Shown piece after piece: positions 1 through 36,095 of a DNA stretch of 64,000 bases (position 1 is the first letter of the stretch; each line of letters starts with the position of its first letter). The notes beneath the pieces are model-generated. The model saw only the letters and a program-made list of their open reading frames with translations, searched no databases and was not told the origin of the DNA. Origin of the DNA: a virus; IMG/VR virus record IMGVR_UViG_3300044981_000152, positions 35,221-99,220 of that record; one strand, written 5' to 3'. Both the position numbers and the translations under genes were made by a program.

Positions 1-124
1 GCACTGTGGTTAGATCGGGCAGCGAAGAGAAGGACGGCATACACGGGCTGTGCCGCGCTTGGCCCTGAGCGTTCGTTTGCCTGCGAGGGTGTCAGCCCAG
101 GACGCTGGCCGGTATGCCAGCGGC

Positions 125-153
125 CGGTCTCAGCCTAGCGCGGAGCCCGGCCG
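125..153. repeat. 29-30 bp direct repeat, copy 1 (CGGTCTCAGCCTAGCGCGG[G]AGCCCGGCCG)
   Basis: Matches 451-480 except for one extra G there; the core GCGCGGAGCCCGGCC also occurs at 306-320. Confidence 0.9.
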
Positions 154-308
154 GGGGTGGCGTCCCGCGTCCAAGTACCCCGGAGGGGTACAACTGCATC
201 CTGGCAATCGGAGGCAGGAAATATTATAACCGCGATCTGGCCAGGCCGTCCGGCCTGCGATGATTCCGCGTTTCCGCAGGTCGCGTTTCGGCTGTGGCCC
301 TGCATGCG

Positions 309-360
309 CGGAGCCCGGCCCCTCGCGTCTTCCTGGCGGTGTCGCGCGGGCCGGGCTCCG
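309..360. terminator. GC-rich hairpin, terminator-like
   Basis: CGGAGCCCGGCC (309-320) pairs with GGCCGGGCTCCG (349-360). Confidence 0.55.
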
Positions 361-450
361 TCAAGCAGGGCCAGTCTCGCCGCGGTCTGCTGACTGGCTG
401 CCGGTAATCGAAGTTACAGACCGCTTCTCTATCCGGCGGCGGTACGCACG

Positions 451-517
451 CGGTCTCAGCCTAGCGCGGGAGCCCGGCCGTGCCCCGTATCAACGGTCCG
501 GGGCGCGGACGGGCTCC
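451..517. repeat. direct repeat copy 2 plus long hairpin
   Basis: Repeat at 451-480; GGAGCCCG (469-476) pairs with CGGGCTCC (510-517), inner stem GCCCCG/CGGGGC. Confidence 0.8.
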
Positions 518-645
518 GTTAAAGCCGGCCCTGTGTCCGGCACTGCTCCGGTGCGGCGGTCATATCCCGAGCACTTCGAGGGTGATCAGTCCCGGTTACT
601 CAAGACGGGTAGGCCGCGCCGCCCGGCTCAACCTGCCTCACCAGC

Positions 646-1092
646 CTAGCGGTGGCCGTTCCCATTGAACAGCACCCCGGCTTCCAGGCGGCGCCACACC
701 TCGAGCGCCTCCTGACGCCGGGTCATGCCCGGCGTCGCCGCCGTTTCGCCGCCGTAGCAGCGGCAGGTGCGCTCATGATGGGCGAGCGGCCCGGCTACCT
801 CCATGAACTGGCATTCCTTGTGGACGTGGCGGATCCCGCCCGTCCTGTCGGCCTTCATGCATGGCATCGCCTGCCCGGAGTCGCCCGCTTCCTCGCTGAA
901 CGGCTCGTCGCAGTGCAGGCAGTTCTCGCCGACAGGGAAGGGCTTGCGCATCTCGGCGATCAACTGGCCGTCCTCGTCGTAGCAGATGTACGACCACCAG
1001 GGCTCGCCGAACCACCCCCAGTTGGCGCGGCGCACTTCGATGGGAATGTTATCGTACGGAGTGCCCGGCTTCCCGGTGTCAGCACCCATCAC
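646..1092 (-). CDS. hypothetical phage protein, Cys/His-rich
   Basis: Last ORF of the coupled minus-strand operon; CxxC and HxxC motifs. Confidence 0.7.
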   Translation of the reverse strand: MMGADTGKPGTPYDNIPIEVRRANWGWFGEPWWSYICYDEDGQLIAEMRKPFPVGENCLHCDEPFSEEAGDSGQAMPCMKADRTGGIRHVHKECQFMEVAGPLAHHERTCRCYGGETAATPGMTRRQEALEVWRRLEAGVLFNGNGHR

Positions 1093-1744
1093 GGCTCCCC
1101 TCGGTTCGCAGTTGCGCAGTCGCTTCCTTCAGCCGTTCCAGGCCCACGCCGCGCTCGCCGTTACGGCCCACGATCCGCATGAGCACATCCAACTCGCCCA
1201 GCTCGCGCGGCTCGAAGCGCCTGACCGGCTCGACCAGCGCAGCGGCACCGTCAGCGACGCGCCACTGTGCCGCGACCTCGCCTTCCCCTTCGTCGGTGAT
1301 GACCTGGGCGTGCAGGTCCAGGTACGGGAAAGCGGCGGCGATGGCCTGCCAGTCCTCCGTGACCTCCTTGGCGGTCGGCCATTTGCCGATGTTCCAGGTG
1401 GAGCAGCCGATCGCGCCGTCCCAGTCAAGCCAGCCGTGCGGGCCGCCGATCCAGGCCGAGACGATCCGCGAGTTGGTGAGGTGGTAAAGCGCGAGGCCGC
1501 CGATCGACTGGTACCACTCACCAGCGGCCTGCCAGGACATGTCCCAGTAGCTGTAGCCGCCGGCCTCGCGCCGGATCATCCCGATCCCGAGCACGTCGGC
1601 GACGGCCTTCTCCCACGCGCGGTCATTGGTGGAGAAGTACGGGCCGTTGGTCCGCAGCAGGATCTCATTCGCCTGCTTGCGGGTGACCGGCTCGGGCTTC
1701 TCGGGGACCACGATCAGGCGCGGCCACTTGGTCAGGTCTCGCAC
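1079..1744 (-). CDS. hypothetical phage protein (Trp-rich)
   Basis: 221 aa with protein-like composition, RBS upstream, overlaps the next ORF. Confidence 0.75.
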   Translation of the reverse strand: MRDLTKWPRLIVVPEKPEPVTRKQANEILLRTNGPYFSTNDRAWEKAVADVLGIGMIRREAGGYSYWDMSWQAAGEWYQSIGGLALYHLTNSRIVSAWIGGPHGWLDWDGAIGCSTWNIGKWPTAKEVTEDWQAIAAAFPYLDLHAQVITDEGEGEVAAQWRVADGAAALVEPVRRFEPRELGELDVLMRIVGRNGERGVGLERLKEATAQLRTEGSRDGC

Positions 1745-24847: not shown

Positions 24848-25168
24848 CTAGGCCGCCGCCCCGTTCACCTGGGGCGGGCACTCGTGGCCGGGCTCCCACA
24901 GGCTGCTGCACCCGACGCATACGGTCGCGAGGCGCGTGCCGGGCCGGCCGTCCTTGCGCTCCAGCGATTCCCCGGAGCAGCCGAAGACTTCCGCCAGCCG
25001 GGCGATCATCGCGGGATGGGCGTTGCGGGTGCCGCTCTCGATCATGCTGACCAGGGCGAGGGATACGCCGAGCCGCCGCGCCACGTCGCTCTTGGTCAGG
25101 CCGGCCTGCTTGCGTGCCCAGGTCACGGCCTGCGGCTCGTGGTCGAAGACTGGCTTGGGGTTGCCCAT
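24848..25168 (-). CDS. Cro-like XRE HTH regulator with C-terminal Cys cluster
   Basis: ARKQAGLTKSDVARRLGVSLALVSMIESGTR; CVGC...HEC. Confidence 0.88.
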   Translation of the reverse strand: MGNPKPVFDHEPQAVTWARKQAGLTKSDVARRLGVSLALVSMIESGTRNAHPAMIARLAEVFGCSGESLERKDGRPGTRLATVCVGCSSLWEPGHECPPQVNGAAA

Positions 25169-25337
25169 GACGGGAACAATAGTGTGAAGGGACGTTATAT
25201 GCAAGTACCTACCGGCACCTTCTCGCACCTTTTTCACAAGCCCTTCACAGACCTGCGCCGAAGTGTTACCGTCACGGGCGGGCGGGATACGCGCACCTGG
25301 TAGACACCTGGTGTGAACCTATGTGAAGGTAGACCGC
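25169..25337. promoter_or_regulatory. divergent lysis/lysogeny switch region
   Basis: Between divergent HTH genes; five TGTGAA/TTCACA half-sites. Confidence 0.7.
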
Positions 25338-26024
25338 ATGGATACGCGCCCGCCACAGCCCCCCGAAGGCCGTCTCATAGGCGATGCAGCCGAACGCCTC
25401 GACCTCTCCATCAGGGAAGCAGCCCGCCGCGCCGGCATCTCCTACGGCCGCTGGCGCCAGATCGTCCAGGGCTACCAGAACGTCTCCCCCGGCAACTACG
25501 CGATAGTCCGCATACCCGACACCGGACGCGCGGCCAGGACCCTGGCGAAGATGGCGGCAGTCGCCGGCGTCACGCCCGAGCAGATGGAGACCATCGGGCA
25601 GCGTCCCGCCATAGCCGAGGTGATGCGCAGCCTGCCGGGCGCCCCGCGCCCTGTGCTCGCCGGCGAGTCCCCTCCTGACGCCCCGCCCGGCTTCATCAGC
25701 CGGGAGGCAGAGGAGGCAGCGCGGCCGTTCAGGGACGAGATCTGGCTGCGGCGCGGCGAGTGGAGAGAAAAGTACGCCTCCGCCCATCCCGGCATCGCCC
25801 CCAGCGACATCCCGGAGCCGCCCGGTGCCGCCCTGTTCGGCGAGGGCAGCCCTGACGCCCAGGACTGGGACCGCATGGGGAGCCGCGGCCTCGACCTCCA
25901 GGGGCGCATATGGGTCCTCGCCGCCACGCAGGTCCACGAGGCCAGGGCAAAGGACCGGGAAGCGGCCGGGTTAACCGGCCCGGTTCGCAGCAAGCCTCGG
26001 CAGCGTCGTATTACCGCGCGGTAA
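25338..26024 (+). CDS. CI-like immunity repressor (XRE HTH)
   Basis: LSIREAARRAGISYGRWRQIVQGY...TLAKMAAVAGVTPEQM; divergent from the Cro-like gene. Confidence 0.85.
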   Translation: MDTRPPQPPEGRLIGDAAERLDLSIREAARRAGISYGRWRQIVQGYQNVSPGNYAIVRIPDTGRAARTLAKMAAVAGVTPEQMETIGQRPAIAEVMRSLPGAPRPVLAGESPPDAPPGFISREAEEAARPFRDEIWLRRGEWREKYASAHPGIAPSDIPEPPGAALFGEGSPDAQDWDRMGSRGLDLQGRIWVLAATQVHEARAKDREAAGLTGPVRSKPRQRRITAR

Positions 26025-31102: not shown

Positions 31103-31390
31103 ATGACGGAGCGCGACGCCCCCCGCTTCCCGCCGCGCGGGCGTAAATTGGTCTACGTGGCGATAGCGGACGTGCTCGCGGCCAGGATCGAGGACGGGAC
31201 CTACCCGCCGGAGGGGCGGCTGCCCGCCGAGCTGGATCTCGTCGCCGAGTTCGGGTCCTCGCGGGAATCGGTGCGCCGCGCAGTCGACGAGCTGCGCAAA
31301 CGCGGGCTAGTCGAGACGGTGAAGGGGAAGGGCACTTTCATCCTGCCGGCCGGGGAGCGGCCGAACGGTCAGCGTAGTGCCGGGGACTGA
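31103..31390 (+). CDS. GntR-family winged-HTH regulator
   Basis: YVAIADVLAARIEDG...RLPAELDL...SRESVRRAVDEL...GKGTFI. Confidence 0.92.
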   Translation: MTERDAPRFPPRGRKLVYVAIADVLAARIEDGTYPPEGRLPAELDLVAEFGSSRESVRRAVDELRKRGLVETVKGKGTFILPAGERPNGQRSAGD

Positions 31391-31435: not shown

Positions 31436-31900
31436 TCACGCGGGCGGATTGTTTCCCTCGCGCGGCCGGCAGGCGTTCACCGCGGCTACGATGAGCGCGG
31501 CCAGCTCGGGGGTGCCCACCAGCCCGATGACGGGATCGTCGTCGGCCGGCCCGTCGCCCACCTGCCGGTAGAGCGCCGGGACCTTCCGGCCCTGGCAGGT
31601 GGTGACTGACTGCCGGAGCGTGACACCCGCACCGGCCAGTTCCGCATGCCCGGCCAGTAGCGCCCGGAGGCGCCGGTTCTCCGCTGCCAGCTCTTTCACC
31701 CGCCGCTCCGGCGGCGTGCAGTCGCAGGCCGGGCAGATGGACGGGCCTCCCGCCGACAGCGGGTAGTCCTCCGCTCCGCAGCCGGTACACGGTCCCGGGT
31801 GCGGGCCGAAGTTGAGGCCGTTGATGCCGAGGCAGTGCGGGCACGAAGCCCAGCTGGAGCGGCCATGCGGGCACGGAGCGGACGTCACCGAGTTCGTCAC
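31436..31900 (-). CDS. Cys-rich hypothetical protein
   Basis: Several CxxC motifs; coupled. Confidence 0.6.
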   Translation of the reverse strand: MTNSVTSAPCPHGRSSWASCPHCLGINGLNFGPHPGPCTGCGAEDYPLSAGGPSICPACDCTPPERRVKELAAENRRLRALLAGHAELAGAGVTLRQSVTTCQGRKVPALYRQVGDGPADDDPVIGLVGTPELAALIVAAVNACRPREGNNPPA

Positions 31901-32103
31901 GACTTCCGCGCCTCCTCCGCCGCCCACGCCGCCATCCCCCACGCCTCGATCATGGTCAGGTCCGCCGTCTTGGCCAGCCAGTGGCACACCTTCCCGCGCG
32001 AGTCCAGGCCCTTGACGACCACGAGGGCTTCCAGCGGCTGGGACAGGTCGCAGTCGTCCATGTCCAGCGGCAGCCCGAAGGCGCTGAATCCGGCGTCACT
32101 CAC
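31897..32103 (-). CDS. hypothetical protein
   Basis: GTGA overlaps. Confidence 0.6.
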   Translation of the reverse strand: MSDAGFSAFGLPLDMDDCDLSQPLEALVVVKGLDSRGKVCHWLAKTADLTMIEAWGMAAWAAEEARKS

Positions 32104-32258
32104 TCGTCATCGGTTTCCAGCGCCACGTCGCACGGCAGGCCGCACCCGGTGCAGATGTACGTCCGGGTGGTCTTCCCCTGGACGCTGAGCACGGCACGGC
32201 AGCAGGCCGATACCAGCCGGCCAGTGTGCCAGCGCGGAGAGAAGCCGTCCTCGGTCAC
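32100..32258 (-). CDS. small Zn-ribbon protein
   Basis: SACC...YICTGCGLPCD; probable leaderless GTG. Confidence 0.55.
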   Translation of the reverse strand: MTEDGFSPRWHTGRLVSACCRAVLSVQGKTTRTYICTGCGLPCDVALETDDE

Positions 32259-32317
32259 GGCCTTAGTGTGCCACGTCGCCAGCCTTGAGCGCGGCGAGGA
32301 CGTTGCGGCGGGCTGGC

Positions 32318-32467
32318 TCAGCCGTTGTGGTACATCTGCGGGACCGGCTGGCTCCCGTTGTGATACATGGCCGCGGTGCCTGCGGGGGCTGCCGCGGTGG
32401 CGACGGTGACGGCGGGCACGGTGAGGGCGGCGGCACCGATGAAGACGGCGGCTATGAGCTTGCGCAT
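32318..32467 (-). CDS. 49-aa secreted pro-peptide with two MYHNG copies (not in ORF track)
   Basis: GGAGG RBS 8 nt before ATG; MRKLIAAVFIGAAALTVPAVTVATAAAPAGTAA-MYHNG-SQPVPQ-MYHNG*; the copies differ only at synonymous positions. Confidence 0.85.
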   Translation of the reverse strand: MRKLIAAVFIGAAALTVPAVTVATAAAPAGTAAMYHNGSQPVPQMYHNG

Positions 32468-32589
32468 GATGCGCACCTCCAGGCGCACTGTGCCAGGGGC
32501 GGGTCTTAGACCGCTCGTGGCTTACCACGGCCCCGGAAACATCGTGGCATCCGCGGCTGGCGGGCCCGGCCGTCCGGAAGGGGCGAACC

Positions 32590-32790
32590 GTGCACGAGAC
32601 CCTCAAGCGGTTCCGCGACCCCGAGCTTGACCTGTGCGCCATGCTCTGTGACCTCATCATCGACATCCGGCGCATCCTCATCCACCCCGACTTGCAGAAT
32701 CACGTCAAGCTCGCCTGCATTGCGGAGGCCGTGGACGAGCTAGCGCCACCCCCGCCTCCGGACCTGACGGCACCGCGGCCGGAGGGGTGA
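32590..32790 (+). CDS. hypothetical protein divergent from the peptide gene
   Basis: GAAGGGG RBS; protein-like 66 aa. Confidence 0.55.
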   Translation: MHETLKRFRDPELDLCAMLCDLIIDIRRILIHPDLQNHVKLACIAEAVDELAPPPPPDLTAPRPEG

Positions 32791-32880
32791 TGCCGGTGTT
32801 CTTCTGGGAATCTGACCCCGCGGTCCTGGCCGCGTACGACCCCGATCCGGCCGGGCAGGACGAGCGCGACGACGAGCGCG

Positions 32881-33102
32881 TCACGCCGCAGGCTGCCGCA
32901 CCCACGTCGCGATCCGTGCGTCCTCGCTGATCCGCGCGAGCTCGGCCACCAGCTCCGTCACGTCGGTGATGATCTGGCGTGCTGCGGACTGCGCTGGCGT
33001 GCCCGTCGCGAGGCTCTTGCGGACGACGCCCGCGCAGCTGGCGATCCGCCGCGCGAGCTTGTCGGCGGTGGCAGTGTGCTGCCGCTGCGAGGCGATGATC
33101 AT
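32881..33102 (-). CDS. hypothetical helical protein
   Basis: Protein-like ORF; start uncertain. Confidence 0.45.
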   Translation of the reverse strand: MIIASQRQHTATADKLARRIASCAGVVRKSLATGTPAQSAARQIITDVTELVAELARISEDARIATWVRQPAA

Positions 33103-34251: not shown

Positions 34252-35118
34252 CTAGGCCGTCCGCAGGTCGTCGAGCGCCCGCCGGATGATCGCGGCGGCG
34301 TCGCCGCCGATACTGGCCGCCTCGCGCAACTGCCCCAGGTACTTCTCGTATCGCGCCACCTGATCGCCCTCGGCCAGCTCCAGCTCGCGCTCGATCGACT
34401 CCACGATGACCAGGTCGTCGTACAGCCGGAAGCCGCTGAGCGGGTAGACCGGCAGCGCGGCCTCATCCGGGATGATCCCGAGCTCCAGCGCCGACAGGCC
34501 CGAAGCGGACATCAGCCACGTGAGCTGCCCGGCCAGCACGGGGACGGACACGACGCGGGAGCGCAGCGCGGCCTGGAGCATGATCACCGTGACCTGGTGG
34601 TCATGCCCGGACAGCACCCGCTGGCGCTGCAGCCGCACGTCGACCATCCGCTCGAGCTCGTCTTCGCTGGCGCCGAAGCTGAGCGGCCCGCACGGCAGGC
34701 GCAGCATTTCCCGCGCGTACTCGGCGGTCTGGACCAGGCCCGAGATCATGGCAGGCTGGAACTCCGCGATCCGGGCCGACTGCGCCTCGTAGGCCAGGAT
34801 GTCGGCCTGCACGCCATCAGCCCCGGCCTCGCGGAAGGCGTCCTTCCATGTCACGGACTCGACGCGCGCACTGCGGAGCATCCCGAGCAGTTCCGCGACG
34901 GCCTCAGTTGAGGCACCCGTGGCGGCGGCCCACGCAGTTACGTCCTCTTCGCCGGGGAGCTGCTTGAAGGTTTCGATCTTCGACACCTTGGACTGGCCAG
35001 CGGCCCCCCATCCGAGCATCCCGGCCAGGCGGGCACCACTGAACCCGGCACCCACCCGGAGCGCCTTGAGCGCCTCAGCGAGCCGCCTGCGCTCGCGCTG
35101 GTAAGCGGGTGTCGTCAA
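34252..35118 (-). CDS. XRE HTH plus DUF5753 regulator (WhiJ/Scr1-like)
   Basis: HTH ...QSKVSKIET; ISGLVQTAEYAR, RLQRQRVL, LELGIIP. Confidence 0.9.
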   Translation of the reverse strand: MTTPAYQRERRRLAEALKALRVGAGFSGARLAGMLGWGAAGQSKVSKIETFKQLPGEEDVTAWAAATGASTEAVAELLGMLRSARVESVTWKDAFREAGADGVQADILAYEAQSARIAEFQPAMISGLVQTAEYAREMLRLPCGPLSFGASEDELERMVDVRLQRQRVLSGHDHQVTVIMLQAALRSRVVSVPVLAGQLTWLMSASGLSALELGIIPDEAALPVYPLSGFRLYDDLVIVESIERELELAEGDQVARYEKYLGQLREAASIGGDAAAIIRRALDDLRTA

Positions 35119-35940: not shown

Positions 35941-36095
35941 AGCCATTCACGGTGCCATCTGACTAGCACTGTCTGAGCATCATGCGCAGGTCAAGCCTAT
36001 CCGGTCAAGAGCGAACCTGAGCAACCCTGAGCTATAGTGCATAATGCGTAAGTTATGCTTGACCTATGCACGATGCGGGCTTACGCTCAGAACAG
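35941..36095. promoter_or_regulatory. AT-richer divergent promoter/operator region
   Basis: CTGAGC x3 plus inverted GCTCAG; GGTCAAG x2 plus inverted CTTGACC; GCATAA..TTATGC. Confidence 0.65.

Follow-up and report, generated by a model that had tools for sequence, protein, structure and literature searches.

The peptide gene and its surroundings

The window analyzed here makes up the right 64 kb of a 99,220-bp IMG/VR virus record and has a GC content of 70.5%. It contains a minus-strand gene for a 49-residue pro-peptide (P0002) with a predicted export signal, arranged back-to-back with a plus-strand gene for a 66-residue protein (p66). The features of the locus are the following.

32318 to 32467, minus strand: peptide gene (P0002), coding for a putatively exported pro-peptide of 49 residues, stop codon included; assigned from its coding GC, two public gene callers and the start and stop of the homolog P0006
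32476 to 32480, minus strand: Shine-Dalgarno sequence GGAGG, separated from the ATG by an 8-nt spacer
32369 to 32467, minus strand: predicted Sec-type signal peptide, codons 1 to 33 of the peptide gene
32354 to 32368, minus strand: first MYHNG copy, within a seven-residue insertion found only in the lineage of the window
32336 to 32353, minus strand: linker SQPVPQ, containing the family-invariant Pro seven residues from the C end
32321 to 32335, minus strand: second, C-terminal MYHNG copy, equivalent to the end that is hypervariable throughout the family
32468 to 32589, no strand: divergent intergenic region of 122 nt between the peptide gene and p66, with the presumed promoters
32590 to 32790, plus strand: p66, the conserved partner, a predicted three-helix protein of 66 residues; GC3 of 0.87; preceded by a GGAAGGGG site at a distance of 6 nt
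32242 to 32263, minus strand: stem-loop of 7 bp located 3′ of the peptide gene, enclosing the AAGG and the GTG of the following ORF; does not qualify as a terminator
32100 to 32258, minus strand: second gene of the operon, a Cys-rich (zinc-ribbon-like) ORF of 52 residues, assigned from the frame plot and start candidates; no family match
31897 to 32103, minus strand: third gene of the operon, 68 residues, whose start overlaps the preceding stop (GTGA)
31436 to 31900, minus strand: fourth gene of the operon, 154 residues, a Cys-rich zinc finger and a coiled coil followed by a second module; start in a GTGA overlap

The record comes from a genuine temperate tailed phage with a high-GC actinomycete host, a soil actinophage. 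Its tailed-phage genes include those for a terminase, a portal, an SU10-type capsid protein, RecT, YqaJ, a tape measure protein and a GH25 lysin, and the presence of a tyrosine integrase and of a Cro/CI-like pair indicates that the phage is temperate. In that pair, a Cro-like HTH_3 gene (24848-25237, minus strand) and a weak CI-like HTH_31 gene (25323-26024, plus strand) face each other. The portal is only about 25% identical to those of Streptomyces phages, no close DNA relative was found among phages or plasmids, and the coupling ATPase, used as a query, returned no close phage relatives. A 102-kb phage (G001) has 11 of the 99 proteins of the window's phage in common with it and does not carry the peptide gene and p66. 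In the 64-kb window, scans for Rfam families and tRNAs returned nothing.

The two genes are located in a region of mixed orientation between the early and late arms, i.e., the lysogeny/accessory region. An initial sequence-only reading had placed the peptide gene between two genetic switches. This is roughly right, as the Cro/CI-like pair lies on one side and a second divergent region, near 35950-36066, on the other. The latter promoter region harbors a 23-nt inverted repeat built on GCTTGACCT (35975-36076; 83% complementary, 54 nt apart). The repeat GCTTGACCT is found at 32625, inside p66, and at 35982 and 36057, and the count of this motif is not above chance.

The peptide gene is real and conserved

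The ORF runs on the minus strand from an ATG at 32467-32465 through 49 codons to a TGA at 32320-32318. The GGAGG-N8-ATG start described in the sequence-only reading is thus present, but on the minus strand (GGAGG at 32480-32476, ATG at 32467). The GC contents of the three codon positions (0.65/0.55/0.88) are those of real genes of this phage, and the frame plot is flat for the ORFs that overlap it on the opposite strand. Two public gene callers also report the gene, with 49 residues in Logan and 56 in JGI/IMG. In the 122-nt intergenic region we found no sigma-70 consensus; it contains a 14-bp palindrome (32516-32529), which is unique and not above chance.

In its first 33 residues the peptide resembles a signal peptide of actinobacteria. 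The n-region is basic, the hydrophobic core is long, and the c-region contains Pro and Gly and has small residues at positions −3 and −1, two sites that are kept in the homolog P0006. A profile of the peptide was run in six frames against 401 Actinomycetia genomes, and its matches were confined to signal peptides at the N termini of large secreted proteins. At the level of prediction, these lines of evidence agree with the Sec-type signal sequence proposed before. From the c-region, we infer that signal peptidase I would cut after Ala33.

The 16-residue tail (positions 34 to 49) is composed of MYHNG, the six-residue linker and MYHNG again. As had been noticed from the sequence, the DNA copies of the motif differ from each other only at two synonymous third positions (TAT/TAC and GGG/GGC). 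For 16-mers drawn at random from the composition of this phage, the chance of a perfectly repeated 5-mer is approximately 4e-5. The synonymous differences make a recent gene conversion unlikely and favor selection on the peptide.

An exhaustive phmmer search of 1.84 billion representative proteins yielded one true homolog, P0006, and two low-complexity matches. P0006 has 46 residues, is 65% identical to P0002 and is encoded on a 625-bp NCBI contig. Start and stop are retained, as is the entire c-region, and both motif copies read MFHNN, showing that the Tyr-to-Phe and Gly-to-Asn changes affected the two copies together. This concerted change adds to the synonymous-only differences in supporting the earlier proposal of selection on the peptide, and selection for two identical peptides would be the simpler reading of the two sequences. 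The residue that precedes the second copy is not conserved (Gln in P0002, Trp in P0006), so that the release of two pentapeptides is a conjecture.

The peptide has no match in Pfam, PHROG, NCBIfam or PADLOC, and a word-index search returned the peptide itself only. No related loci were detected with a profile of P0002 and P0006 (A1) in genome, viral and metagenome contigs, nor did tblastn with either sequence find anything in phages and plasmids. A scan of genome contigs for two M[YF]HN units gave, among the matches listed, only chance ones in AT-rich genomes. None of our conclusions draws on the unpublished genomes G018, G266 and G307, which also came up in the searches, and locus L153 was omitted from alignment A5. 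The peptide seemed to be an orphan in these searches because the P0002/P0006 profile misses the syntenic alleles described below.

The peptide gene and p66 form a two-gene phage cassette

A p66 homolog with 75% identity is present in IMG/VR contig G405, a phage fragment that has only approximately 6 of the 99 proteins of the window's phage in common with it. Homologs with 73 to 77% identity are found, among the matches listed, in four metagenome contigs (alignment A7). At all five loci, an ORF of 43 to 49 residues with a signal-peptide-like N terminus is located divergently upstream of the p66 homolog, and in each case an AGGAG-type site is found 6 to 8 nt before its ATG. The divergent layout of the window recurs in loci L183, L188, L189/L190 and L191. 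Thus, the peptide gene is one half of a two-gene phage cassette, of which p66 is the other half, in back-to-back orientation. The sequence-only reading had suggested a search for small ORFs with variant peptides; tblastn retrieved none, and synteny via p66 revealed them at five of five loci.

The window and the other cassette loci have nothing in common except p66 and the peptide gene, and their downstream genes differ. No p66 gene was found in 401 sampled Actinomycetia genomes, and hence the cassette looks phage-borne and rare.

We aligned P0002 and P0006 with the syntenic peptides (alignment A8; six alleles). The export part is alignable and the Pro at position −7 is invariant, and no two of the six alleles share the same final hexapeptide. 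Five of the alleles end in Gly, and most have an aromatic residue and a His or an Arg. The seven-residue insertion, which amounts to an extra copy of the allele's own end motif, is present in P0002 and P0006 alone.

The p66 family members have 57 to 100 residues and are far more conserved than the ends of the peptides. The structural model of p66 (pLDDT of 77) has helices at residues 3 to 9, 15 to 30 and 33 to 51, followed by a run of Pro residues, with no detectable DNA-binding or ligand-binding fold. Searches of Pfam, PHROG, NCBIfam, PADLOC, PDB sequences and PDB folds gave no match. Conceivable roles of the protein are those of a receptor, of an effector that the peptide controls or of a regulator of the divergent promoters.

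The cassette loci show several local variations. In the window, the GTG of a 47-residue ORF (32787-32930, plus strand) with a coding-type GC3 overlaps the p66 stop codon. This ORF, which may be the second gene of a rightward mini-operon, is not conserved in the other cassette loci. In L183 (2646-2785, minus strand) and L188 (2009-2157, minus strand), the stop codon of the peptide gene forms a TGATG overlap with the start of the following ORF, which suggests translational coupling of the peptide to a variable small downstream gene. The two overlapping ORFs, of 46 and 49 residues, are unrelated to each other. In L189 (1133-1204), L190 (1538-1609) and L191 (687-761, plus strand), the peptide gene and the p66 homolog are separated by a tRNA-like gene. 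ARAGORN calls it tRNA-???, with a 2-nt or a 4-nt anticodon. Only a T-arm-like remnant is found at this position in L188, and the window and G405 have no such element.

The peptide gene is the first of a four-gene operon

According to the frame plots and the analysis of start codons, four genes form an operon with the peptide gene at its head, and this operon converges on a GntR-type gene of 95 residues (31103-31390). The hairpin that had been reported to follow the peptide gene is a weak 7-bp stem without a U-run, into which the start of the next gene falls. It is located 55 nt past the peptide stop codon, the folding energy of the region is no better than those of shuffled sequences (z of −0.29), and a terminator scan found none.

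We found no relatives of the 68-residue third gene product. The C-terminal module of the fourth gene product is conserved and ends in an Ala/Val-rich helix. The 154-residue ORF joins two modules that are found as separate proteins in other phage contigs, and the JGI gene call covers only its last 87 residues. At seven viral loci that carry these modules, no peptide ORF was found nearby.

Candidate receptors

In agreement with the sequence-only reading, which saw no TPR-type receptor, the TPR_12 and RNPP_C profiles gave no match in the 99-kb phage at E<=1, and the neighbors of the peptide gene have no TPR according to Pfam. A TrmB-type gene was not matched either, and no LuxR- or TrmB-type regulator lies beside the peptide gene. 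The GerE profile gave a weak match only, 15 kb away from it.

Several other receptors had been suggested in place of a TPR protein. Of these, the divergent ORF at 32590, i.e., p66, accompanies the peptide gene at five of five loci, and the HTH-DUF5753/DUF6879, lipoprotein and membrane protein genes do not. Chromosomal relatives of the HTH-DUF5753 protein have no gene for a secreted repeat peptide within 1.5 kb. We modeled this WhiJ-like HTH_31-DUF5753 protein (34252-35118, minus strand) from 30 sequences (pLDDT of 92). Its C-terminal DUF5753 domain has an alpha/beta fold that matches PLD-fold domains (F13, SauUSI, Zucchini, NucT and FAM83) and the C-terminal domain of TrmBL2 over 120 to 144 residues, with Z scores of 10 to 11. 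As the domain is alpha/beta and PLD-like, the protein is not of the TPR type. The family-invariant residues of the domain include no His or Lys, and it therefore looks like a pseudo-PLD ligand or partner domain. A complex prediction of residues 20 to 49 of the peptide with the DUF5753 domain (score of 0.09, mark of 0.32) carries no weight either way.

Locus L188 codes for a 398-residue HTH_31 protein with a sub-threshold TPR_2 match (37-1230, minus strand), 0.9 kb downstream of the peptide gene and on the same strand. The Atlas neighbors of its C-terminal part include TPR-labeled clusters of actinobacterial regulators. It displays an RRNPP-like architecture in an actinobacterial phage-type contig. 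As neither the window's phage nor G405 has a homolog of it, we regard it as a lead and not as a part of the cassette.

A possible peptide signal

Peptide-based communication between phages is known only from phages of Bacillota, with TPR receptors, and actinomycetes are thought to use small molecules instead (PMC10075063). We found no description of peptide signaling by actinophages in the literature.

A signaling role for the peptide could proceed as follows. Cleavage by signal peptidase I after Ala33 would free the 16-mer, and trimming near the invariant Pro would then liberate the C-terminal 5- or 6-mer. In the window's phage, the N-terminal end of the 16-mer could yield a second, identical copy. 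Unmodified, the 16-mer and MYHNG would have calculated monoisotopic masses of 1858.79 and 620.24. The short peptide might serve as an allele-specific, pherotype-like ligand that acts outside or after re-import, and the signal would be read via p66 or by an unlinked regulator of the host or the phage, to feed into the lysogeny/accessory region.

What makes the system pheromone-like is the combination of a conserved export and pro-region, a hypervariable C-terminal 5- to 6-mer and a faithful partner gene that moves with it between unrelated temperate phages. The concerted change of both copies in P0006 also fits selection on a released peptide. Against signaling, p66 is small and uniform, and the receptor profiles TPR_12, RNPP_C and TrmB found nothing in the phage; moreover, the family is tiny, and five p66 sequences are too few to judge co-variation. 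Considering these arguments, we view a pherotype-like signaling function of the exported pro-peptide as a reasonable possibility rather than a probable one, and as a credible candidate for such a system outside the Bacillus group. The more specific proposal is a non-RRNPP type of actinophage communication, in which a pherotype 5- to 6-mer present in two copies would set lysogeny, induction or spread, with p66 binding the re-imported peptide or acting as the effector. We hold this version to be rather doubtful. If true, phage peptide communication would extend beyond Bacillota, with parts unlike those of RRNPP systems. The cassette would represent a compact and directly testable entry point, consisting of a 16-mer and a 5-mer accessible to synthesis, one 66-residue partner and a temperate phage in which lysis and lysogeny can be told apart by eye. 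Should the signal reading fail, it would still encode a fast-evolving exported peptide of phages that has not been described before, along with its dedicated partner.

Other explanations for the peptide

The main rival explanation is that the product is an accessory (moron) mini-protein, exported or anchored in the membrane, with no signaling function. It might block superinfection, modulate a sensor or a transporter of the host membrane in an MgrB-like manner or act like a type I toxin peptide. The signal sequence would then stay as an anchor, and the tail would contact a fast-evolving surface target of the host or of a phage. The small size (49 residues) and the layout, a single long hydrophobic stretch followed by a short polar tail, are in line with this idea, as are the rare and patchy distribution of the peptide and its location among accessory genes of the lysogeny region, including a lipoprotein gene. 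The hypervariability of the tail could also reflect an arms race with a variable target. However, the part best conserved between P0002 and P0006 is the c-region, whose Pro, Gly and small −3/−1 residues resemble a cleavage site, the profile matches the cleavable signal peptides of secreted proteins, and an anchor does not need a concerted change of two copies. We consider such a mini-protein possible but somewhat unlikely. A secreted Cu- or Ni-binding peptide, in turn, would exploit the Met-Tyr-His ATCUN motif created by cleavage, or the two Met/His pairs as a Met2His2 site. Met2His2 sites with a neighboring aromatic residue resemble the Cu(I) sites of the PCuAC/CusF type. In both copies of P0002 and P0006 the Met and the His are invariant, and the His is the third residue after the predicted cut. 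Nevertheless, the ATCUN motif pointed out in the sequence-only reading is confined to these two alleles, and only if the cut occurs after Ala33. In the tails of the four other alleles Met is absent and His occurs once at most, and their predicted mature N termini lack X-X-His. In addition, no metal-handling genes lie nearby, and metal binding leaves the concerted Tyr-to-Phe and Gly-to-Asn changes unexplained. A metal-binding function thus appears improbable.

The position of the gene at the head of an operon, with a 7-bp stem over the AAGG and the GTG of the next ORF, could instead suggest a regulatory leader peptide of the CutF, SecM or MifM kind, in which export-coupled translation would open the stem. 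CutF is an exported nascent-chain metal sensor of approximately 118 residues that requires co-translational export. Sensors of this DUF2946-like kind have approximately 100 residues, a Sec signal, a Cys/His motif for metals, a Pro-rich C-terminal end that causes stalling and a conserved stem over the Shine-Dalgarno site downstream (PMC9973294). Our peptide similarly has a Sec signal, a possible metal-ligand motif, a Pro near the C-terminal end, the first place in an operon and a stem over the next start. Unlike CutF, however, it has no downstream metal genes and no Pfam match, and with 49 residues it is too short. Most of the chain would be in the ribosome tunnel at termination, which argues that sensing by co-translational export cannot work. 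The stem lies well beyond the stop codon (55 nt) and is not more stable than shuffled sequences. Since the downstream genes of the relatives differ or start by a TGATG overlap, no conserved stem exists among them. A leader function is therefore extremely improbable in our view. Equally slight is the chance that the peptide is a RiPP precursor with an aromatic/His core cross-linked by a host enzyme, such as the P450 that modifies biarylitides. The cores of biarylitides are Tyr-x-His, and three of the alleles have Trp-x-His or His-x-Trp near their ends. In the window motif, though, Tyr and His are adjacent and not in an i/i+2 arrangement. Furthermore, the phage has no P450, no modifying enzyme is found in any cassette locus, and a Sec signal peptide would take the peptide away from cytoplasmic enzymes. 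Finally, the ORF is short and Ala-rich, and in high-GC genomes such as this one long open frames occur frequently. A chance or non-functional ORF is nonetheless very improbable, given the coding-type GC3 and the Shine-Dalgarno site, the conservation of start and stop in P0006, the syntenic, Shine-Dalgarno-preceded counterparts at five loci and the chance probability of 4e-5 for the repeat.

Relationship to known peptide systems

The possible signaling function invites a comparison with arbitrium (AimP/AimR/AimX), found in SPbeta-like and other Bacillus phages. As in arbitrium, the carrier is a temperate phage, the pro-peptide has 40 to 50 residues and a Sec signal, and the candidate functional part consists of the C-terminal 5 to 6 residues, which vary between related elements while the rest is conserved. 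In contrast with arbitrium, the window's phage has no AimR-type TPR receptor, the partner is a divergent three-helix protein of 57 to 100 residues, the host is a high-GC actinomycete and the end motif is present twice. The arbitrium-like signal that had been proposed from the sequence thus agrees with the build of the pro-peptide and the allele-variable hexapeptide, but not with respect to an adjacent TPR receptor.

The RRNPP pro-peptide systems are defined for RRNPP_detector by an adjacent TPR receptor of 250 to 500 residues (PMC10075063). Our locus resembles Phr/Rap, PapR/PlcR and NprX/NprR in that a Sec-exported pro-peptide in the range of 10 to 100 residues has an allele-specific C-terminal end and adjoins a conserved partner gene. 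It differs from them by the lack of an adjacent TPR receptor; only L188 has an HTH protein with a weak TPR match, 0.9 kb away. As it fails this adjacent-receptor definition, the locus should not be filed as RRNPP or arbitrium.

Precursors with several copies of a signal peptide are known from other organisms, such as those of yeast alpha-factor, the plant CLE and CEP peptides and the cyanobactin precursor PatE. The product of our gene differs from them in being a bacterial Sec substrate with only two copies and no conserved dibasic or other cleavage sites in the spacer. Like them, it is a single precursor in which a short peptide is present in identical copies, probably kept so across species by selection on the product.
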